Assembly (NCBI GenBank): GCA_015232565.1
Contig: JADFZK010000003.1
Coordinates: forward strand, 64,540 to 128,539
Direction of reading: 5' to 3'
DNA: 64,000 nucleotides
Origin: Candidatus Omnitrophota bacterium
GTDB lineage: Bacteria; Omnitrophota; Gorgyraeia; Zapsychrales; Fredricksoniimonadaceae
Made by a program: the position numbers and the translations under genes. The notes under the pieces were generated by a model, which ran no database searches, was not told the DNA's origin, and worked only from the letters and a program-made list of their open reading frames with translations. This document shows, in pieces, positions 4,241-60,929 of this stretch; position 1 is the first letter of the stretch, and each line of letters opens with the position of its first letter.

Positions 4241-7200
4241 AACTCACCCGCTCGTCCGCGTTACGCTTATTAATTCCTTCGCGGTCGAAGAACATCTTCC
4301 ACATGCGATCCTTCATCTTCTTGGTATAAGGCTCAAAAACCACGGTAAAGAATGTTTTATGTTTGCTAACCAGCTCATGCTCTTTCCCCTTATAAGCTTC
4401 CAGAGCACTCTGAACCCCGGCCAGAATAGCCTTTACATCCAGAGTCTTAAGCGTTGCTTCAACTTCTTCACAAGGCGTCTTTGCCAGGCTCAACGACATT
4501 CCCGCCATCGCCATCAGATCGTCAAAAGCGGCAATACGAACCCGCAATTTCTCTTCCTCAATGTCACGGCAGACTTTATCATCAATTTCTTTAGGCAACC
4601 CGCGCTCCAGGCCCACAATGTCGTTAACCAAAGACATGACAGTTAAACCGTCCTTGCGCACCAGATCTCCCTGTTGTATTACCTTTTCCTTAGGGCTTAA
4701 GGTGGCGTCATTCTTGATAGCCTCAAGATTAGCCAGAGTATCCATATTAAAACGCAGTTCCTGACGAACCATCTCGGGCAGGATCTCGGGCCGCGCGATC
4801 AAACGGTGGGCGTAATTTCTCAGGAGATCAGCCGTGGCATCCACTATATGGAACAATACCAGTTCGGCGCGATTATTTCTACCAACCGCAGCCAGATCAA
4901 GGGGGTCACTCTTGCCATCCAGTTTCTCAGCCTTTGCAATAGCAAATAATTCCTGGACCGTCCATTGCTCTCCACCTTTCTTCTCTTGAGCCAGGGCCAC
5001 GGCCCGGATCAGATCGAATATCGTCGACAACAAAAGGCCCGCATTTACCCGCCCTTCATCCACATCCTTGCCCTGGGCCTTTTTAAACTCTTTTCTGGCC
5101 GTCCTCAGGCGCCGTTGTTTATCCCCATAGGAATAACCGTTCTCCCGCTCCAATGCCTTCTGATCATTAACCTGACTGACCAATCTTGCCATCATCTTAT
5201 TCAACACTTCTATAATGCTTTCTTCGGTGATAAGTTCTATAATGACTGCACTCCGAAGAACATTCTGCAATTCGTCTAAAGCCGTGGCCAAATCTACCGG
5301 AGCCGGAGCCGCGGGAGTCGCGATCTCGCCCTTTTCATTGTATGTAATCATCTGAGCCACAAAGCTTGCCAAATCCATAGCCTCTACACACACCAGCGCT
5401 GTCTTACAATATTCTGGCTTGGAAGATTGCCATTCATGCTCTATCACTTCTTTGGCCTGTTCTGCATACTCTTTCCGGTTGGCCTGATAAGCCTGCTGCT
5501 TTTCTTTCTCCGAGGCTATCGCCTCCTTAGTGGCCCGGGCCGCTTTCCAGCCCGTAATCCGACGCAAAGCCACCATACCGCTCAACAACAGCCCCAGGCC
5601 CCAGGCATATTCTCTCCAGCTATCCTGCAAATGCTTCCTTACATCCAACAGCCACAAGTCGCTCTTGAGGCGCACCACAAAATTAGGCTTAACCACCACA
5701 TGCTCCACAATATTCGAATACTGCGCCACGGCCACATAAGGCACCGCTTTAAGCCCCGTCTGACGTTCCGCCAGGGACACACTCTTGATCTGCGCCAGGA
5801 CCGTATTGGTGGCGCCGTCGGAATAGTCGGACTGCCGGCCCTCCAGGAACCACAAATAATACAAGGTGGACTCCAGATTATTCGGCCCGGTATGATCGCC
5901 GTAAGAAACATTGTTGTAATCCTGGCCGGAGTGGTTAGCCAGCGGCAAGCCTACGCTCGTCCTGCCGTCCAGCCCGGGCACTGTGGATTCCTCGAGCAAT
6001 TTACCTAAAGTGCGGCGCACGGCCTGGTCCTGCGGATGCGTCGACCCGGCCAGCAACTGGCCCGCGAGCGCGGAATTAACATAAGAAACCAGGTAGCTAT
6101 GATTGGTAAGCCCGGCATTAACCGGAACATTCACCAGATTGGTTTCCGCCAGCCGGTTGGTCCCCGCGATACCAAAACCAACACCGGTCAGGGATCTGGA
6201 ATTTACAAACCGGCTCACTGCATCATCGACCGCGCCATCCGCCAGGACTTTGGTGAACCTCAGCACAGTCGCTGGCAACATGTTCTTTTTATATACTTGC
6301 CCCAGCGCCTGGCGGGCTTCCTTATTACCCAGCACCTGGCTGGCTACCAACTGCAGGCGCACACCAAAACTGTCATCCGCGCGGCCGCTGTCAAACAACC
6401 CGGCCTGGTAATAACGACTGCCTTCGTTATATTGCTTCTGCACAAAACCCAGTATCCGGGTAGCCGCCTGGCGAATTTCGGTGCTGGCGGCAAAATCGCC
6501 CAGGAAGCGGGCATAACGCATCAAAGCCGGATAAGCCAGCACATTGTCCAGCGTGTCTTTACCGCCATGGAACGTGGGCGTGAGCGCATGCCTGGCCGCC
6601 AGGTCGCCGTGCTTGAACAATCCACCGTCCACCTGGTCCTGTAACGACAACAGGCGCTTGGCCAGTTGGCCTGCCAGTGCGCTGAACGCCGGGCGATCGG
6701 CCGCCAATTCCTTGATATCCGCAGTTTCCTGAAGATACTTTACCAGCACCCGCAGGAGCTCCGCGTTATCCGCCACATACACCTCGTCGCCGCCCACAGT
6801 GCCCGGCAAACCCCAGTACATTGACGAGAAGCCCGTAAACTTGTCTCTCCCCGCCATCTGCATTTCATACTGGCGGATATATTCCTTAAGGATCGAAAGC
6901 ACATCTTCCGCGGTTCTTGCGCGGTCCACCGTGCCGTCGGTCTTGCGCAGGTCGTACAAGGCATTCTCGATGAAAAGAGCATTAACACGGCTATAGCTCT
7001 GCAAGGTGCCTTCCTGGGTCGCAGGCAATGTAGTACCGCGCGCGATATTGTTCTCGCCGGCCAGTCCCGCATTGCAGGCCGCGCCGGTATAACGCACGCT
7101 CGCCGCCACCGCCGCCCGGAGCAATTTGATCCGCTGGGCGTCATCCAGGACCGCCTCACCGCGCCAGGAGCGGTAATTGCTCCAGGACATATCCAAAGAT

Positions 7201-46200: not shown

Positions 46201-46913
46201 AGCTCTTCCAGCGGCTTATTTATCCCGGCATTAGCCAGAATGTCCTGCAGAGCATAAACGCCGCAATTCAGCACGTTCAGGCTGGGCTTATTAAGCCATA
46301 CAGCGATATCTTTGATTTGCGTGGGCGTAAACTTGGCCAAAGCGTTGATCAACAGCGCTTTGCCGTCTTTTTTCTGGTCGTCAAGTCTAAGCGATACGCT
46401 CTCGGCCTTCTGGCGGTTAACGTCGGTCAGCAACTGGTCCACACTGCCCGCTACCTGGCGAGCGGCCAGTTCGGCCGGGGTAATATCCGGGTTCTGCATT
46501 ACCAGCGGAGCCTTGTTGCCCCAGATAATGGCCGGATTATAGTTAAACGCCCAGCTGATCTGGTCGGGGATGAAAACACAAAGCACCGTAAGCGCAATAG
46601 CCCGGATCCAGTTATTGAACCGGGAAGCAAACTGACCTTCCGGGTAACCGGCCGTTACACCTTCGCCAGCAGGAGGAAACTGATCGCCACCCGGCACGTT
46701 AGCATTATAGCCAGCAAAACCGGCGCCAGCCAGGTCCGGAAATTGCCTAACCAGCTCGGAATCCGAAAGTTGCACATTGTCATTTGCCGCAGAGGACGGC
46801 TCAACCGGGGAAATTTCAGCAGATTGGGGGAGGGCAAAAGAAGAAATATCCTCTTTATTATTAAAAGAAGATTCAGAATTGTTAGAAGACTGTGGTTTAC
46901 CGTTTTCAGTCAT
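1..46913 (-). CDS. Giant multidomain protein, partial. The N-terminus is in the window; the C-terminus runs past the window start. At least 15,637 codons.
   Basis: No stop is reported in minus frame 2 (coordinate 46913 mod 3) across 46.9 kb. All listed minus ORFs in 1-46913 lie in the other two frames, and the plus ORFs are short antisense shadows. ATG at 46911-46913 follows an in-frame TGA 48 nt upstream. GC3-rich codon periodicity holds throughout. A reverse-complement read gives continuous protein-like sequence with domain motifs. Confidence 0.8.
9060..9900 (-). other. Clan GH-A (GH5-like) TIM-barrel glycoside hydrolase domain within the giant protein
   Basis: …[19 protein letters not shown]… carries the NEP acid/base motif (codons at 9586-9606). 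…LNWYRH… follows, then …[12 protein letters not shown]… carries the nucleophile motif (codons near 9285-9300). The spacing is typical of GH5-type enzymes. Confidence 0.55.
13600..15430 (-). other. Low-complexity Ser/Ala/Val/Asn region followed by a Pro/Ala/Thr-rich linker (15160-15430) in the giant protein
   Basis: The translation shows …[23 protein letters not shown]… repeats and …[43 protein letters not shown]…. The DNA has imperfect 24-bp tandem repeats at about 14590-14720, and the Arg-rich plus-strand shadow ORF 15162..15380 overlaps it. Confidence 0.55.
21850..22100 (-). other. Degenerate M23/LytM-like or hybrid-barrel segment
   Basis: …[73 protein letters not shown]… follows the M23 beta-barrel spacing but lacks the HxH metal ligands. 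Confidence 0.25.
24000..24480 (-). other. GNAT-like acetyltransferase segment
   Basis: …[82 protein letters not shown]… has the beta-strand/V-shaped fold pattern and an R/Q-x-x-G-x-G/A acetyl-CoA motif (KLGLGAAL). Confidence 0.4.
25626..25640 (-). other. HExxH (HELMH) zinc-metallopeptidase-type motif
   Basis: Minus-strand codons CAT GAG CTT ATG CAC at 25626-25640 give …[16 protein letters not shown]…. This is a motif only. Confidence 0.25.
29330..29370 (-). other. P-loop-like motif (LAMAGGKTT) resembling helicase / SecA motif I
   Basis: Codons GGC GGT AAA ACC ACG at 29343-29357 on the minus strand give GGKTT. The surrounding sequence is …[42 protein letters not shown]…. Confidence 0.25.
32150..33330 (-). 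other. Ala/Pro/Val/Gly-rich low-complexity linker of the giant protein
   Basis: Minus-strand translation is dominated by AP/APA/PAV repeats (…[32 protein letters not shown]…). The plus strand here gives the A/G-rich shadow ORF 32665..33561. The DNA is built from GCC/GGC/GCG triplet runs. Confidence 0.6.
45100..45800 (-). other. Cluster of hydrophobic segments (predicted transmembrane anchor region) after the peptidase-like domain
   Basis: Long runs of A/G/V/I/L-rich segments (…[20 protein letters not shown]…, …[21 protein letters not shown]…, …[14 protein letters not shown]…) read between verified landmarks at 45748-45812 and 45098-45146. Confidence 0.4.
45950..46330 (-). other. Papain-fold (C39-like) cysteine peptidase motif region at the N-terminus of the giant protein
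   Basis: Read on the minus strand: ...[16 protein letters not shown]... (Cys codon at 46263-46265), then about 80 aa later ...[21 protein letters not shown]... (His near 46010). The spacing and context match a C39-type Cys/His dyad. Confidence 0.4.
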
Positions 46914-47074
46914 ATTTATACCGAGTTTGTGAAACAATGGAAGTATAGCACATATATGCTGTCAAGCAAATTTTTGGCAAAAATAAATGCCCTCACAACC
47001 CATTTCTCAACAATGCCTTACATTCCATGCAGAATCTTTTTTCCAAAAAAAATTGCATTAAATCTCTTAATATA

Positions 47075-47117
47075 AAAAAAACAAAAAAAAGATTGCAAAA
47101 CTCTGTTTGGACATTAA
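47075..47117 (-). promoter_or_regulatory. Putative sigma70-type promoter for the giant gene, with an adjacent TGGACATTAA half-site
   Basis: On the minus strand, TTGCAA sits at 47093-47098, an A/T-rich 17-18 nt spacer follows, and TATATT sits at 47069-47074. An A/T tract lies upstream. The half-site 47108-47117 exactly matches the right half of the 59188-59210 palindrome. Confidence 0.25.
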
Positions 47118-47160
47118 ACAAAAACCAAAGCCCCCCTCCCTGACCCGCCCCACCAGGGGG

Positions 47161-47305
47161 CGGGTATCAAGCAGCATGCAGAATCTTTTCACGAATAACT
47201 GCTCCACCAAGAGCGGGCATCAAGTAGCATGCAGAACCTTTTCACGAATACCTGTCGTATCAAGAGCGCGTATCAGGTAACGTGCAAACCCCTTTCACAA
47301 ATACC
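47161..47305. repeat. Three tandem repeats of about 53 bp, sharing the GCATGCAGAAYCTTTTCACGAATA core. A fourth partial core copy lies at 47026-47040.
   Basis: 47161-47213 and 47214-47266 match at roughly four of every five positions. 47267-47305 is a decayed third copy. Confidence 0.6.
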
Positions 47306-47340
47306 CTCCCCCTCTGTGGGGAGGGTCAGGGAGGGGGACA
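47304..47340 (-). terminator. GC-rich hairpin (CCCTCCCC / GGGGAGGG stem, 6-nt loop) followed on the minus strand by UAUUUGUGAAA, copy A
   Basis: An inverted repeat with an 8-bp G/C stem sits at 47304-47325, and a U-rich tail follows in the minus sense. The element is duplicated at 47507-47545. Confidence 0.3.
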
Positions 47341-47354
47341 TGCTCACAAAATAT

Positions 47355-47373
47355 ATTGTCCAGACTGGACAAT
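47355..47373. promoter_or_regulatory. Perfect 9-1-9 palindrome ATTGTCCAGACTGGACAAT (core TGTCCA-N3-TGGACA), copy 1
   Basis: The inverted repeat was checked base by base. It is duplicated at 47559-47577 and related to the site at 59188-59210. Confidence 0.6.
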
Positions 47374-47506
47374 CTCTTGAAACACAAAGACCCTAAATGG
47401 TTTACAGCACCAAAGAGGGTCGCTTTTTACTTCATAAAGAATGTCCAAACACCCAAAAGACTTCCTTAAAACAGAAACTTAATCATCAACAAATCCCGCT
47501 CACAAA

Positions 47507-47545
47507 ATACCCTCCCCCTCTGTGGGGAAGGTCAGGGAGGGGGTT
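47507..47545 (-). terminator. GC-rich hairpin plus U-rich tail, copy B, about 40 nt downstream of the tadC-like stop codon
   Basis: The sequence matches copy A with one stem mismatch. In the minus sense it is followed by TATTTTGTGAG. Its position just after the stop at 47584 fits an intrinsic terminator. Confidence 0.35.
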
Positions 47546-47558
47546 GCATAAAGCACTT

Positions 47559-47577
47559 ATTGTCCAGACTGGACAAT
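47559..47577. promoter_or_regulatory. Perfect 9-1-9 palindrome ATTGTCCAGACTGGACAAT, copy 2
   Basis: The sequence is identical to copy 1 and sits about 7 nt from the tadC-like stop. Confidence 0.6.
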
Positions 47578-47583
47578 TTTAAA

Positions 47584-48483
47584 TTACTTGCCTAACCCGC
47601 CCAGCGGATTGTTCATTACGAAATCCAGGAAGATCGGCGCGCCAACTAAAATGAAAACTACCGGAAAAATAAAGAACAAAAGCGGGATAAGCATCTTGAG
47701 CGGAGCCTTTAAAGCCATCGCTTCCCCGCGCCGAAAACGAGCCAAACGCATATCTTCCGAAAGAATGTTCAAAGCCTCGCTGACTGAAGTACCCATCTTG
47801 TCGGCCTGAATAAGCGTCCGGGCAAAGGTGGAAAGGTCCGGCAATTCGTACTTTTTGGCCAGGTCACGCAAAGCCTCGCGCCGGGGCTTGCCTACGCTGA
47901 TCTCCTGCAAAATATTGTTCAGTTCCCGGTTCACTACCGAATCGGCCGATTTCTCCACCACCCATTTAAGAGCCATCATAAAGTCCAGCCCGGCATTTAC
48001 GCACAAACCCAGCAGATCCACCGAATCCGGCAATAAACGCACAATATCGTCCTTGATCTTGCCAATGCGTGAACGCAATACCATCTCCGGGCCTATATAA
48101 CCTATTGCAACAGCCATCAGAATACCAAAAACCAGCAAATCTGGCGGCACAACCCGCGATAGCAACATAATAAGCGCACCCGTCAAAACCAGCTTGATCA
48201 ACATAAAAGCTTCCGGCGTAAGGTCGGTCTGCGAGATCATCAGGTCGCGCGTGAGGCGCTTGCGCATTTCCGGGCTAATTAACGGCTTAACGATCAAAGC
48301 AATACCGTTAAGAAAGAAAAAACGGTCCACTTTCTGCTTTTGCACCTTAGCTTGCGGCGTTAAAGGCGATATACCCAGGTCCTTAAGGTTCAAAGAAGGC
48401 CTATCATCCTTTGCCACCGGGGAAAGGCCCACGATCAACAAGGAGATCGAAAGAAAAACCAGGATCAATGTAGCTGTTAACAT
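47584..48483 (-). CDS. Inner-membrane platform protein with a single T2SSF domain (GspF/PilC-half, TadC-like)
   Basis: This is a 299-aa ORF with three hydrophobic segments. The conserved T2SSF cytoplasmic helical domain pattern (…DLLGLCVNAGLDFMMALKWV…, …RREALRDLAKKY…, …SVSEALNILSEDMRLARFRRGE…) is read directly. Confidence 0.6.
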   Translation of the reverse strand: MLTATLILVFLSISLLIVGLSPVAKDDRPSLNLKDLGISPLTPQAKVQKQKVDRFFFLNGIALIVKPLISPEMRKRLTRDLMISQTDLTPEAFMLIKLVLTGALIMLLSRVVPPDLLVFGILMAVAIGYIGPEMVLRSRIGKIKDDIVRLLPDSVDLLGLCVNAGLDFMMALKWVVEKSADSVVNRELNNILQEISVGKPRREALRDLAKKYELPDLSTFARTLIQADKMGTSVSEALNILSEDMRLARFRRGEAMALKAPLKMLIPLLFFIFPVVFILVGAPIFLDFVMNNPLGGLGK

Positions 48484-56468: not shown

Positions 56469-56621
56469 CTATTCCCTCGAGTATTCTTCTCCGATGTCCT
56501 TTTGTTTGGCCTGTACGGCCCGATACACATAGGTGCTCATGGCAACCACCGCCGCCGATACGATCGCAACGACAAGGCAATATTCAACAAGATTCTGCCC
56601 CTGGCAATTTTTTATCCTCAT
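56469..56621 (-). CDS. Unannotated 50-aa Flp-family-like pilin sORF, below the track length cutoff
   Basis: I translated the minus strand by hand: MRIKNCQGQNLVEYCLVVAIVSAAVVAMSTYVYRAVQAKQKDIGEEYSRE. The GQNLVEY motif, a TAG stop at 56469-56471 and an AGGGG Shine-Dalgarno-like element upstream support the call. Confidence 0.45.
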   Translation of the reverse strand: MRIKNCQGQNLVEYCLVVAIVSAAVVAMSTYVYRAVQAKQKDIGEEYSRE

Positions 56622-56700
56622 CGCGCGCCACCCCTGTGAACAAAATACATCTGGCCGGGGCTTCCTTGAACATCACTGCGAAGCGAGAATGTTCCCGGCT

Positions 56701-56729
56701 ATTATACCGCCCCGGGTTACCCCGGACGG
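56701..56729 (-). promoter_or_regulatory. Putative promoter for the Flp-like sORF, with a perfect TATAAT -10
   Basis: The minus-strand TATAAT sits at 56701-56706 about 80 nt upstream of the ATG. A small CCGGG-TTAC-CCCGG hairpin lies in the spacer. The -35 is weak, and an AT-rich tract lies upstream. Confidence 0.3.
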
Positions 56730-56889
56730 CCCGCAAATAATATCAAACAAACTTTATTCGCAGTACAACCCCGCTTTAAACGGAGCCGAAAGGCGTTACG
56801 GCACACCCCTTCCATACAAGCGTCACCAAAGTATAACATATGAAATTGAACGCCGCAATGGTGAAAACGAAATTAGTTTTGTGGAAAAG

Positions 56890-59145
56890 TTAAAGTGTAA
56901 AAACTATGCGGCGGCCATCGGCGGTTTTGAAAAAAGCGGCGTTAAGCGAACTTAAAATAATAGTTAATTGCGGCTGGTAAGCGTAATCTTCCGGTAACTG
57001 AAAACGCAAGAAAACGGTATCAGGGTGTTCCTGAATGTAACCAGAGAGGTCGTAAAGCCAGTGGCACATTCCCAGCCAGGAAAGCGCCTGACAGGTGGAA
57101 TCCAGGAAATATTTCCGCAGTAAAACATCAACTTCCCTGATCACAGCCGAAATACTGCCTATTTGTGGAGCAAAAGACAGCGCTTTACCCTCAATTAGCT
57201 GGCCGCATCCCACATCAGAGGCGATAGTAGAATTGAATAATTGCCGGAAAATATCTTCCGCACCGCACTTTTCAGCCGGAATATTTGACAATAATACAAA
57301 TTCTTCCCCCCAGCCTTCCGGCTTGACTGTTAACACCCTTAATGGCTGATCCGCCCCCTCGACCGCCAGCGCGCCTTCAAAATATCCGCAGGACCTGTCC
57401 GCTATGGGGTCGAAGTACGCGCGGTGATTGTCGATCATTTCGTATTCCACGCGGGCCATTTCGCTTTCGGAAAGGCGCACCCGCAGAATAAAATCCCGAC
57501 GGATAGCCGGAATGGACAGAAATTCCGCGCATTTGGTGTCATTATCGCCAATAAGCTCCAGGGAACCAAAGACGTCCTCACCGCGGCCGTCCATTAAACG
57601 GATAAAAGCCAGCAGTTCCGGCTGTAGGCCAAAAGCGGGCACATTGGCCATTACCGGCTGCATATTGGTGATAATGCTGTCGACCGCCCGCTCGACCGCC
57701 ATGAATATTGGCAAAGCGGCCGCCGGGGACTGGCCGAATACCGAAGCCTGGCCGGCGTCGATGAATTCATAATTCAGGGCCGGTAAGGCGGCATCCAGAT
57801 AAAAACGCGCGCCTTTAGCCGACAACAGGCGGAAATATTTCACCGGCGTGAACGCCATGGTAAGCTCGGTATGTATGGCCGTGCAAAGGGTTTTGTTATT
57901 TTCCAGGACGAACGCTTTATCTATGATCGCCCGGCCCTGCCGGTCTTCCAGCCCGGCCAGCCGCCAGAGCGTCGAGAGGTCATTGGATTCAAAACCAGGG
58001 CGATGTTCCGCGAACATATCCGCAAAAAGTACCGCTTCACATTGCGCCGAAGTTACGCCCTCCGGCAAAGCGCCCAGCTCGCGGGCCAAGGCCTCGCCCA
58101 AACGACAGGAAGAACAAGCCGCCTGAAAAGCGTACCAGAGCGCCGCCGCCCCCAGCCGCCCGTAAAGCTTGCCCACGTTCCCCAGCCAAAGCGCCGAACG
58201 CTCCCGGGCCTTCTCCTCTTCCCGCTCCCGGGCGCGAATGCCATCCTCAACCTCAGCCTGCACCTGTTCAAAGGAAGGCGTGCCAAAAACGGGGTCCGGC
58301 ATCAGCCGGAGAGCCCGATCGTCAGTCAACGCATTGACCGGCTCCTCAGAGTTAGCGGTCGCAGGCGTTAAGGCCTCCGGCGCCGCCAAACCAGGATCGC
58401 GCTCCGGGACCGACATGAAGGGGTCTTCTGGCTCAAGCGCCGACTCAGGCGCTATTTCCTGAGTCAGATCATTCTCAATAGGTTGCGATACAACGGGTTC
58501 TGTTAATGGCTCAGGCACTGGCTGGTCCGAGTTAAGCTCGGCCCCTACGGCCAATGAGGCTTCCGGCTCGATCGACTGATCCGGAGCATTCTCAATAGGT
58601 TGCGGCACAATGTGTTCTGCTACTGGCTGGGCACATTTATTGGGCGAATCTTCGGCTCGTGAAGTATCGTCAGATTGCCGGGCCGACACCAGGTCGGCCC
58701 CTACGGCCAATGAAGCTACCGGCTCAATCCCGGTTTCCAATGCAGCCCCGGCAATGGGATTCAGCGACTGGTCGGGCTTAGCCTCTGGGGCTCTGTCAGT
58801 TTCCGCGATCATCTCCGGCTTTGGCTTGACTTCCTCAAAAACCGCGGGCACCGTTACGGCGGGGACTACTGCCGGCAAGAACATTTGGACATTCTTCAGG
58901 AGTATGTCCTTCTTGTGCTGGGGAATAGCAAAGTTCTTGGGGGCTTTATATATGGAATGCCGGCCGATCGGCCCGCTCAGCCTGGCTTGCTTTAAAACCG
59001 CATTAACCGAGGATTTGGACACCTCAAAATTGAACTTATCCTTGATCATTTTAACCAAACCGCGGCAACTCAAAGAATGGTCGGTCCTTTTAGTTTGGAC
59101 AATAAAGTCAACAATATCCTGCCGCAATTTGTAAGCTACACCCAT
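56890..59145 (-). CDS. 751-aa protein with an N-terminal HTH-like domain, a long acidic Pro/Glu-rich tandem-repeat region and a C-terminal globular domain. Function unknown.
   Basis: …LRQDIVDFIVQTKRTDHSLSCRGLVKMIKDKFNFEVSKSSVNAVLKQARL… is HTH-like. The repeats IEPVASLAVGADLV / IEPEASLAVGAELN produce DNA repeats at about 58537-58580 and 58693-58735. No DDE triad is recognisable. Confidence 0.5.
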   Translation of the reverse strand: MGVAYKLRQDIVDFIVQTKRTDHSLSCRGLVKMIKDKFNFEVSKSSVNAVLKQARLSGPIGRHSIYKAPKNFAIPQHKKDILLKNVQMFLPAVVPAVTVPAVFEEVKPKPEMIAETDRAPEAKPDQSLNPIAGAALETGIEPVASLAVGADLVSARQSDDTSRAEDSPNKCAQPVAEHIVPQPIENAPDQSIEPEASLAVGAELNSDQPVPEPLTEPVVSQPIENDLTQEIAPESALEPEDPFMSVPERDPGLAAPEALTPATANSEEPVNALTDDRALRLMPDPVFGTPSFEQVQAEVEDGIRAREREEEKARERSALWLGNVGKLYGRLGAAALWYAFQAACSSCRLGEALARELGALPEGVTSAQCEAVLFADMFAEHRPGFESNDLSTLWRLAGLEDRQGRAIIDKAFVLENNKTLCTAIHTELTMAFTPVKYFRLLSAKGARFYLDAALPALNYEFIDAGQASVFGQSPAAALPIFMAVERAVDSIITNMQPVMANVPAFGLQPELLAFIRLMDGRGEDVFGSLELIGDNDTKCAEFLSIPAIRRDFILRVRLSESEMARVEYEMIDNHRAYFDPIADRSCGYFEGALAVEGADQPLRVLTVKPEGWGEEFVLLSNIPAEKCGAEDIFRQLFNSTIASDVGCGQLIEGKALSFAPQIGSISAVIREVDVLLRKYFLDSTCQALSWLGMCHWLYDLSGYIQEHPDTVFLRFQLPEDYAYQPQLTIILSSLNAAFFKTADGRRIVFTL

Positions 59146-59187: not shown

Positions 59188-59210
59188 TTAATGTCCACAC
59201 TGGACATTAA
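59188..59210. promoter_or_regulatory. Perfect 10-3-10 palindrome TTAATGTCCA-CAC-TGGACATTAA in the AT-rich region upstream of the 751-aa gene
   Basis: The palindrome was checked base by base. It has the same TGTCCA-N3-TGGACA core as the two sites at 47355 and 47559. Confidence 0.6.
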
Positions 59211-59508: not shown

Positions 59509-60264
59509 TCATTTGCCGACCAAATTGCGCTCAATCTCTCTAACCAAGGCATCCGGGAAACCCTTGATGATCAAATGCTGGTTAACCGGCAGAAACTGCT
59601 TCAGCTCATGCCTGAAATCGCGCCCTTCTTTCTTAACAGCGTTTATTAATTCCGCCTTCAAAGCCTTGTTTTTGGTAAAAACCGCCTGAAATGCCATCCG
59701 CCCGCGTAAAATAAAATATAGATCGTAGAAATCCCGCGCCTTGCCTCGTGTCAAACATGCCCGGATCTTCTCCCCCACCAGAATCTCCTCATCTAAATGA
59801 ATCAACGCAAAGGCAGGAACAAAATCAGACTGGATCAATGTGGCCGCGGCCAAGGCCGCGCCTCGAATCTTATTCTCTTTGCGTAAAGACACCTCTATCT
59901 GGATACGGCTGCTATATGCTCCGGTCCGGAAATCAAAGATCGCAAGATATCCACCAGTTGTTGCCTTTGACTCATCAATCCTGGTCTCGATCCCTGACTG
60001 CTCGATCTTCCCGAGCGTGTCTTCCATAGTGGCCTCAATGCCGCGAAGGCCCAAATTAACCCCAGTAAAATCCAGATCCTCCGAAAAACGGGGGCTCTGC
60101 CAGACTATACGCAGCGCGGTTCCCCCTTTAAAAAGGAATCCCTCCGACCCTTTTGCCTGATAAAGCTGAGCAAGGAATAGATGCTGGAAATATTCGCGAA
60201 TAACATTGTCGGCTGTCGTTTGATATCGCTCGGCAAGTTGCTGGATCAGTCTTTTTTCTATCAT
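59509..60264 (-). CDS. abiEii: AbiEii/AbiGii-family nucleotidyltransferase toxin (DUF1814-like), type IV TA toxin
   Basis: …FLFKGGTALRIVWQSPRFSEDLDFTG… is the family motif (GGTAL … RFSEDLDF). The length is 251 aa. The gene sits directly downstream of an AbiEi-like gene. Confidence 0.65.
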   Translation of the reverse strand: MIEKRLIQQLAERYQTTADNVIREYFQHLFLAQLYQAKGSEGFLFKGGTALRIVWQSPRFSEDLDFTGVNLGLRGIEATMEDTLGKIEQSGIETRIDESKATTGGYLAIFDFRTGAYSSRIQIEVSLRKENKIRGAALAAATLIQSDFVPAFALIHLDEEILVGEKIRACLTRGKARDFYDLYFILRGRMAFQAVFTKNKALKAELINAVKKEGRDFRHELKQFLPVNQHLIIKGFPDALVREIERNLVGK

Positions 60265-60272
60265 GAAGCTCC

Positions 60273-60929
60273 TTACATCTGAAGTTTTGCAGACAGAGGA
60301 ACGGAATCCTGCCCGCCCTGGATGGGCTGGCAGCAGGATAAAACCTCTTTAACCAGTTTAAGCAAACTCGGCCGGCCAAACAAAGCCGCATACTCCATAA
60401 CCATCTTTTTATTCAGCTTCCGTGTGTTCAATCGATCATTGTGACTTCTCAGTTTCAAATCCACAAAATAGTAGTAATCCACGAATGCCTTTTCGGGTTC
60501 GGCCATGAGAACCGTCGCCCCATCGATCTTTTCTGCCCTGTAACCGCGGTAAGCCTGTTTCTTGATACGTGCGTACTCAAAACTCTTATTGTTTACAGTG
60601 AATTCCCGGGTAACCCGGGTTGTGGCCGAGGTGATCGTATAAACTGTCTCTGGAATAATGCCCTGCCGGGCCATAGCGTATTCAAAAGAAATATAGCTGG
60701 GCGCATAAACCCGGTTAGCGATCTCCCCATCGGATGGCAACTCAATACGCAAAGCATACAGGCCATTGCGCATCTTCAAAAAAATATCCTGCGAATGGTC
60801 TTTAATAAACTCCTGGGCCGCCCGTAATGAGACAGAGAAAGTCCGCTGGAATTCAACCGGAGAAAACAGCCGGATTCCCTGGTCTTTCAAGACTTGCTGA
60901 ACAACTATAGGTTTAAGTTTTCGCTCCAT
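60273..60929 (-). CDS. abiEi: AbiEi-like antitoxin / transcriptional regulator (wHTH N-terminus plus C-terminal domain)
   Basis: …FLKMRNGLYAL… and …YAPSYISFEYAMARQGIIPE… match the AbiEi pattern. The length is 218 aa, and an 8-nt gap separates it from abiEii. Confidence 0.55.
   Translation of the reverse strand: MERKLKPIVVQQVLKDQGIRLFSPVEFQRTFSVSLRAAQEFIKDHSQDIFLKMRNGLYALRIELPSDGEIANRVYAPSYISFEYAMARQGIIPETVYTITSATTRVTREFTVNNKSFEYARIKKQAYRGYRAEKIDGATVLMAEPEKAFVDYYYFVDLKLRSHNDRLNTRKLNKKMVMEYAALFGRPSLLKLVKEVLSCCQPIQGGQDSVPLSAKLQM

Follow-up and report, generated by a model that had tools for sequence, protein, structure and literature searches.

Conserved promoter and 14-nt box upstream of Omnitrophota giant genes, with a candidate regulator family

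Giant genes of 20-440 kb are a signature of the Omnitrophota; attachment to other cells, or predation on them, is the function supposed for what they encode. Here we consider the 670-bp spacer (46914-47583) that lies between a T2SSF/TadC-like gene and a giant minus-strand open reading frame (ORF) in a 64,000-nt stretch of DNA, hereafter the window, from a Candidatus Omnitrophota bacterium (assembly GCA_015232565.1, contig JADFZK010000003.1, positions 64,540 to 128,539). A secretion/pilus cluster upstream of the giant gene is an arrangement already described (10.1101/2023.11.21.568195; PMC10066038), and the gene order of the window is the same as in those loci: a pilus/secretion cluster, two T2SSF genes and a giant C39 ORF. 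In Velamenicoccus archaeovorus cells that are attached, the peptides of the giant ORF are up about 3-fold (PMC10066038). Descriptions of the box, of the promoter or of the helix-turn-helix (HTH) family set out below were not found in the searchable literature, and the words “promoter”, “intergenic” and “palindrome” are absent from 10.1101/2023.11.21.568195, PMC10066038 and 10.64898/2026.06.07.730766. A first-pass annotation of the window had taken the spacer for a control region of the giant gene, a view that the conserved box and promoter support. We lean towards the same opinion in a modified form, in which the spacer is probably the giant gene's upstream control region, with conserved functional parts interleaved with lineage-specific repeat DNA; the earlier interpretation as a whole finds partial support. 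What is new is the box and the promoter, both conserved, and the family of candidate regulators; the hairpins and 53-bp repeats are ordinary. A conserved promoter, a 14-nt box and a named candidate regulator make giant-gene control testable, and separating an informative palindrome and promoter from ordinary hairpins and duplications helps when other highly structured spacers are scanned.

GalR, LacI, AraC and DeoR are autoregulated HTH repressors that use several operators and sometimes DNA loops. The Omnitrophota loci resemble these systems in having a dyad site on the candidate regulator's own promoter, further sites at a distance of hundreds of bp from the promoter to be controlled and, in some lineages, sites within the core promoter. 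They differ in that the Omnitrophota box is asymmetric and serves as a single site, as a direct array or as an overlapping inverted pair, and in that the candidate, of about 600 aa, carries a transposase/paired-type HTH together with an uncharacterised C-terminal domain. Paired/Tc3-type modules bind asymmetric sites as monomers. The likeness of the candidate to Tc1/mariner and IS630 transposases and to the Pax paired domain lies in its three-helix N-terminus and in matches to HTH_Tnp_Tc3_2, HTH_32 and Pax5/Pax6, all of them weak; unlike Tc1/mariner and IS630 elements, it lacks conserved DDE residues and has a fixed place upstream of pilin genes.

The comparison draws on 83 related loci, three found by exact protein look-up and 80 from metagenomes, which were scanned with an alignment built on the giant N-terminus. 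Counts of upstream regions refer to 72 non-redundant giant-gene upstream regions from metagenomes, and the closest relative of the window locus is L004. The promoter was revealed by enriched 8-mers, with TGTTATAC present in 39 of the 72 regions as against 1 expected, and TGnTATAHT is found in 66/72. About 100 nt align across the loci as CGTAAS-N3-ATTGAAAATAAA, AAAAAYTTGC-N5-6-TTGCC, 16 nt and TATACT, and the window aligns with them. On its minus strand it carries the upstream promoter block, whose family consensus is the first of these elements, as GGAATGTAAGGCATTGTTGAGAAATG (47001-47026), followed by a core promoter (46942-46980) made up of TTGCCA (46980-46975), a -35 element TTGCTT (46969-46964), a 16-nt spacer and the extended -10 TGCTATACT (46950-46942), 28 nt from the ATG. 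Each feature of a sigma-70 extended -10 promoter is thus found, namely the -10, a -35 at 16-18 nt and conservation. Since the promoter is kept across 66 of the 72 loci, the giant gene has a promoter of its own, and conservation suggests that this sigma-70-type promoter would start giant-gene transcription about 22 nt before the ATG.

The first-pass annotation was right that the giant gene has a promoter but had placed it in the AT-rich tract at 47040-47100, whereas the conserved promoter is at 46942-47026, downstream of that tract. The tract itself is present (47041-47100, about 17-22% GC; 47030-47089 has 16.7% GC) and may be UP-like or curved DNA. It holds a weak minus-strand promoter-like match, TTGCAA, an 18-nt spacer and TATATT (47098-47069), for which the role of a second promoter is only a possibility.

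The second conserved element is a phylum-wide box of 14 nt, TAAT[G/T]TCCA[A/T]TCTG, two overlapping copies of which form the 19-bp palindrome of the spacer. A position weight matrix of the oriented sites gives a single asymmetric 14-nt block, tAATGTCCAaTCTg, with TTTCCA instead of TGTCCA in some lineages. The extended box occurs in 64 of the 72 upstream regions, at a density of 2.37/kb upstream of giant genes compared with 0.149/kb in the flanks (16-fold) and about 0.08/kb expected from composition, and the 8-mer AATGTCCA is present in 39 regions as against 1.5 expected. Among the 80 metagenome loci enrichment of the TGTCCA/TGGACA hexamers (5-9-fold) is confined to the ~1.2 kb that precede the giant gene, and elsewhere they are at background. 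The site is thus conserved at orthologous positions in diverged genomes, both its sequence and its location being kept across loci whose flanking proteins share only 35-60% identity. It appears as a lone copy, in direct arrays (whose period is 17 nt in compact loci), in head-to-head pairs and as the overlapping palindrome TGTCCA-N3-TGGACA, the last in 8 of the 72 loci, the window and L004 included. In L070 a box falls between -35 and -10, and in L073, L075, L078 and L079 one abuts the -35. The cluster goes with the giant gene and not with tadC, because four of the five loci without tadB/C upstream keep it and in L084, whose tad locus is not followed by a giant gene, tadC has no box behind it.

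Within the window the box is seen six times between 165 and 620 bp upstream of the promoter, four copies in two palindromes and two solitary. The palindrome O1, ATTGTCCAGACTGGACAAT (47559-47577), consists of two overlapping inverted box copies and starts 7 nt past the tadC stop; the identical O2 (47355-47373) is about 415 bp upstream of the giant-gene -10. The two are 204 bp apart, with 0.00 matches expected from shuffles of the window, and in L004 an identical 20-mer of O1 likewise follows tadC. The solitary half-sites, both AATGTCCAAACA and both missed in the first-pass annotation, are at 47440-47451 on the plus strand and at 47104-47115 on the minus strand, the giant gene's sense strand, where it ends 5 nt upstream of the weak promoter-like match in the AT-rich tract. 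Box clusters peak 200-600 bp upstream of the -10, so O2 (about -415) and O1 (about -620) fall within the usual range. That the palindrome is a conserved motif of protein-binding type is a reading which this conservation favours.

Other readings of the box were tried. An alternative sigma factor would call for two blocks, and this was rejected because a single block is all that appears within +/-45 nt, no second conserved block having been found over that distance. DnaA-box, CRP, sigma-54 and CsrA readings were dropped after a poor match by eye to the respective consensus sequences.

The boxes acquire a candidate binder from a second gene of the locus. The 751-aa ORF HQL20_01345 (56890-59145, minus strand; 100% identical to MBF0386483.1) is upstream of the pilin genes and has an N-terminal paired/Tc3-type HTH. 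Its own promoter carries the box palindrome TTAATGTCCAGTGTGGACATTAA (59188-59210), which starts 1 nt downstream of a -10-like TGTTATTAT (59220-59212) and had likewise escaped the first-pass annotation. In this gene family a box sits between the gene's own -10 and its ATG in seven of seven independent loci (the window, L084, L086, L207, L208/L209, L210 and L211). The TGTCCA-N3-TGGACA palindrome abuts the -10 in five of them (the window, L084, L086, L211 and, in degenerate form, L207), while L208/L209 have two direct copies at the leader and L210 one perfect consensus copy. The chance of a hexamer match in such a short leader is about 0.03 per locus, and seven independent matches are therefore not coincidence. 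Since a box at the HTH gene's own promoter is the classical signature of autoregulation, we infer that the boxes are operators of the HTH protein, and O1 and O2 are predicted operators of the 751-aa protein. The proposal of this protein as a binder, made in the first-pass annotation, thus appears sensible. We also observed a further box copy, TTATTGTCCAAACTAAAA (59092-59101, minus strand), about 45 nt inside the HTH coding region, so that the start codon of the HTH gene has this copy on one side and the promoter palindrome on the other.

A profile search places 676 cluster representatives in the HTH family. The conserved N-terminus of the 751-aa ORF spans about 90 aa, and for this region 17 of 60 members match HTH_Tnp_Tc3_2 and 12 of 60 match HTH_32 in Pfam, while six of 60 match an IS630-family transposase. 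In an AlphaFold model (pLDDT 85) three helices make up the N-terminal domain, which a linker joins to a large alpha/beta domain. Taken by itself, the N-terminal domain has its best superposition, at 1.3-1.4 A, with DNA-bound paired subdomains of Pax5/Pax6, a match which is not statistically significant, and the best Foldseek matches of the whole model are to Tn5 transposase and are weak. Pfam, model and fold matches thus point weakly but consistently to a DNA-binding domain. The family alignment holds no conserved D/E residue and, in consequence, no DDE catalytic signature. Wherever neighbours were captured the HTH gene is directly upstream of pilin genes, and this holds out to members at E = 1e-37, although no downstream genes were obtained for L210 and L211; three distant members (L207, L209 and L211) follow a DUF192 gene, and the one in L207 also follows a T2SSE ATPase gene. 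The window protein has a P/E/A-rich low-complexity linker of about 235 aa (58100-58870), compared with about 60-135 aa in homologues of ~560-640 aa, and this longer linker separates the HTH from the C-terminal domain.

We propose that the boxes serve as DNA operators for the locus-encoded paired/Tc3-transposase-type HTH protein of ~600-750 aa. The palindrome directly after the -10 of the HTH gene has the usual geometry of autorepression, and the regulator would tie expression of the pilus locus to that of the giant gene. Its action would most likely be negative, by roadblock or by looping between box clusters, although the sign is a guess. The 53-nt repeat and the duplication of hairpin and palindrome would be local rearrangements of the kind reported around triplex motifs.

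Several observations weigh against this proposal. The HTH matches, the best of which has E about 1e-4, are weak, and those to known folds fall short of statistical significance; the link between protein and box rests on co-occurrence. The boxes of the window overlap no conserved core promoter, the nearest being about 135 bp upstream of the -35, and direct repression by occlusion is for that reason not evident there. Both hairpin-palindrome units are 97-100% identical while the 15-17-nt gap within them has diverged, so the hairpin could be under selection in the window. Finally, in many other loci the boxes in the leader and in codons 4-7 are all of one orientation (29/29), a point which would also suit a function in RNA or in translation.

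A larger version of the proposal is one that we put forward only tentatively. A transposase-derived family of ~600 aa, its catalytic residues lost, may have been recruited throughout the phylum as master regulator of the pilus-plus-giant-gene locus, with the former transposon ends as operator boxes and a looping or roadblock switch. If this were so, the boxes would stand at the family's own promoter, in arrays 200-600 bp upstream and, in many lineages, in codons 4-7, and the switch would set the moment at which a cell embarks on transcription of the longest bacterial genes known.

Alternatively, the remaining repeats of the spacer might be the regulatory parts, and this was the view of the first-pass annotation: the GC-rich hairpins would be dedicated terminators or insulators between the pilus operon and the giant gene, and the 53-bp repeats a regulator binding array. 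We think it improbable. The closest described counterpart of the hairpins is the BoxC/PIT/TM class II triplex motif, with the E. coli consensus CCCTCNCCC-N3-6-GGGNGAGGG-N3-GGGNGAGGG (Holder et al. 2015, PMC4666352). In E. coli such motifs are always intergenic and have no strand bias, PIT elements show no promoter or terminator activity, and the loci that carry the motif have raised intergenic variability (PMC4666352).

The spacer contains three units of this type. A GC-rich 34-nt unit, CCCTCCCCCTCTGTGGGGA[G/A]GGTCAGGGAGGGGG, is present on the plus strand at 47304-47337 (copy A) and 47510-47543 (copy B), 206 bp apart, and is separated from the palindrome by 17 nt in one case and 15 nt in the other. 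The duplicated ~80-bp unit of hairpin and palindrome reported by the first-pass annotation is thus real, with the distances corrected to 204 and 206 bp and the gaps to 17 and 15 nt. The third unit, copy C (47131-47164), which had been overlooked, is inverted; on the minus strand its stem CCCGCCCCC/GGGGCGGG is followed by CTTTGGTTTTTGTTT, and it shows a compensatory stem change (CCCGCCCC/GGGGCGGG). All three have a pyrimidine domain, a loop of 4-5 nt (3-6 nt in the class) and a complementary purine domain: copy A (pyrimidine 47304-47312, purine 47318-47325) reads CCCTCCCCC-TCTGT-GGGGAGGG, copy B is the same with one G-to-A change, and copy C reads CCCGCCCCC-TGGT-GGGGCGGG. All three also have a 3-nt second loop and a mirror purine domain suited to reverse Hoogsteen pairing. 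The third domain after TCA, GGGAGGGG(G), is the mirror of GGGGAGGG in copy A (47329-47337) and has one mismatch each in copies B and C; copy B in full is CCCTCCCCC-TCTGT-GGGGAAGG-TCA-GGGAGGGGG. Judged by their sequence, the three GC-rich hairpins are BoxC/PIT-type intrastrand-triplex motifs. They share with that class the domain order, the intergenic position, the occurrence in both orientations and near-identical copies in many phyla, and they differ in that the purine tract is GGGGAGGG and not GGGNGAGGG, that three copies are packed into 410 bp and that two of them adjoin a conserved operator-like palindrome.

A scan of one genome per species with the 20-mer GGGGNGGGTCAGGGAGGGGG gave at least 120 exact matches across many bacterial phyla; the matches listed include Alphaproteobacteria, Chloroflexi, Geobacter, Nitrospinota, Planctomycetota and others, with several multi-copy genomes, and nearly all of them share the architecture CCCTCCCCC, a 4-5-nt loop, GGGGGAGGG and then TCAGGGAGGGGG. 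No title among these listed matches names Omnitrophota, and none of the 83 related Omnitrophota loci has the unit, not even L004, which retains the palindrome. We also noted the identical 20-mer, GGGG(N)GGGTCAGGGAGGGGG, with its upstream complementary arm in very distant lineages of the genome collection (L087-L206), among them a Methanomicrobiales archaeon, a Bacteroidales metagenome-assembled genome and an Erwinia isolate.

The tandem repeat described in the first-pass annotation is likewise present, as 2.8 copies of 53 nt (47160-47305) with 81% matches, the third copy being only 62% identical to the first. Each unit has a core of about 32 nt (TATTCGTGAAAAGRTTCTGCATGCTRCTTGAT on the minus strand) and, on direct reading of the sequence, has a degenerate hairpin copy at its end. 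The array thus has the look of a duplication that arose locally, with a triplex motif as its seed. The extra 15-nt core copy, CATGCAGAATCTTTT (47026-47040), was also confirmed and abuts the conserved upstream promoter block. The 53-nt core is in none of the 83 related loci and is not among the enriched 8-mers; it was rejected as a conserved motif since no related locus has it, and nothing supports a regulatory role for the repeats as arrayed binding sites. Because hairpins and 53-nt repeats alike are absent from the related loci, they are best read as lineage-specific filler. The first-pass annotation had itself raised the prospect of the repeats being members of a common REP/MITE-type family, and this holds for the hairpins as a family and not for the palindrome; a MITE/REP-RAYT reading finds no further copy of the whole unit or of the core in the window or the related loci.

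There are features that speak for the first-pass account. Copies A and B have U-rich tails on the minus strand, where a 9-bp GC hairpin (-19.8 kcal/mol) is followed by UAUUUGUG or UAUUUUGUG, and a T-run follows copy C; a terminator scan returned 8 terminator-like sites in a 1.5-kb region against 2.4 expected and flagged, on the minus strand, the copy B hairpin (47509-47532) and O2. The near identity of the two hairpin-palindrome units across a diverged gap, an ordinary terminator hairpin right after tadC in some related loci (L003) and a TCACRAAWTA core that, when the sequence is read by eye, recurs five times about every 52 nt could be added. On the other side, the tails are short and interrupted, copy A was not flagged, 13 nt separate the stem of copy C from its T-run and no related locus conserves the hairpin unit at an equivalent position. 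The hairpins may add a weak terminator contribution after tadC.

When folded as sense-strand RNA, the complete spacer has much more structure than its shuffles (z = -9.4), chiefly through pairing of the inverted GC-rich units over the tandem repeats and through the palindromes. Copy C pairs with copy A in this way, and a 29-nt inverted pair (47132-47160 / 47309-47337) flanks the tandem repeats on both sides. No match to any of the spacer repeats arose in any shuffle of the window. A covariance search of 46500-48000 gave no credible Rfam match (best E = 0.75, well below the gathering score).

Could the boxes instead act as RNA? In such a scheme inverted pairs would be hairpins of the 3' untranslated region of the pilus mRNA, and pairing of single copies with the complementary start-codon copies, or CsrA-like GGA recognition by an RNA-binding protein, would control translation or stability. 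The uniform orientation of the leader and codon 4-7 boxes speaks for it, upstream copies are mostly in the complementary orientation (119 versus 50), one box is exactly +9 from the ATG in 19 loci, and O1 and O2 each fold as an 8-bp hairpin (z about -3). Matching between upstream and start-codon copies is, however, no better within a locus than between loci (permutation control, p = 0.09). The box in the HTH-gene leader has the opposite orientation or is palindromic, so no single RNA strand is consistently used, and in most loci the upstream cluster precedes the conserved promoter and is therefore not part of the giant-gene mRNA. The window and L004, moreover, have no box near the giant gene's start codon. 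On this balance we hold control through RNA to be quite unlikely, and operators on DNA remain the reading that we prefer.

The start-codon boxes are an observation in their own right. In at least 20 other giant-gene loci, two or three direct sense copies 31-38 nt apart are arranged around the start codon (for instance L011 ~5815-5870, L025 ~5830-5880 and L083 ~5870-5940), and the last of them, at the +9 position mentioned above, falls in codons 4-7 (ATGGAYGACAGATTGGACA = M-D/E-D-R-L-D-K/I/N).

A third account, which we regard as very unlikely, takes the boxes for recombination or transposition sites of a transposase-like protein, either as the ends of an invertible promoter or as relic transposon ends flanking a pilus cassette. 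The protein does match IS630/Tc3-type HTH and IS4/Tn5-type transposases weakly, box arrays face each other across the promoter in many loci like multi-site transposon ends, and the boxes of the window mark the head (59188-59210) and tail (47559-47577) of the pilus locus. The likeness to fimS-type invertons is that inverted box arrays flank the promoter of a surface-protein gene in many related loci; the difference is that none of the 72 loci has a flipped promoter, and the window has no box between promoter and ATG, so that box-box inversion would not flip it. The fixed position of the HTH gene upstream of pilin genes, even at E = 1e-37, and the missing DDE signature argue in the same direction. 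Least credible of all is the suggestion that only the promoter is functional and that the palindromes, like the hairpins, are selfish or neutral repeats: the spacer clearly accumulates repeats, yet the box keeps its sequence and location at 35-60% flanking protein identity and recurs at the promoter of the HTH gene.

The genes on either side of the spacer conform to the setting outlined at the start. The giant ORF begins at the ATG at 46913 (start codon 46911-46913, minus strand), has an N-terminal Peptidase_C39 domain and is open for more than 15,637 codons, reaching the window edge; homologues of its N-terminus are the N-termini of Omnitrophota giant proteins. It has about 94 residues ahead of the first conserved block (FxSRFxxWIR...; 46631-46913, minus strand), compared with about 40-60 in most homologues, whose alignments begin near residue 95, and this N-terminal extension is lineage-specific. 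On the other side, the tadC-like gene of the T2SSF family (47584-48483, minus strand; MBF0386470.1; Pfam T2SSF E = 3.5e-17) is the last gene of the pilus operon. Every gene between 47.5 and 64 kb of the window is on the minus strand, and together they make up a type IV/Tad-like pilus system with two T2SSF proteins, small pilins that carry class III signal peptides, PilM/N, and proteins resembling T2SS-M and T2SS-K. A toxin gene of the AbiEii nucleotidyltransferase type (Pfam E = 2.5e-26; within 59509-60929, minus strand) and, upstream of it, a 218-aa ORF with no family match are placed between the PilM/N-type assembly genes and the HTH gene, and look like an insertion into the pilus locus.

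Two kinds of leader RNA were seen alongside. Many giant genes (for instance those of L008, L011, L012, L015, L016 and L022) have leaders of 100-550 nt in which one to three GCCACGG boxes precede a hairpin of terminator-like form (GGGCTACCA...CCGYGGTAGCCC plus a T-run). The box and the 3' arm of this hairpin are complementary. Such a leader looks like an attenuator or antiterminator, and a search of 13 related loci, L011 and L012 included, gave no Rfam family at gathering score. The other is a conserved structured leader of about 220 nt between a ATATGTTATACTT promoter and the first small pilin gene, found in the window at 56610-56835 (minus strand) and also in L084 (11968-12185), L086 (11972-12190), L207 (6138-6362) and L211 (3346-3600). 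It has no Rfam match; its RNAalifold consensus comprises 49 pairs, 21 with compensatory changes, and the outer stem pairs with the pilin start-codon region, so that the pilin leader is a candidate for a new cis-regulatory RNA.

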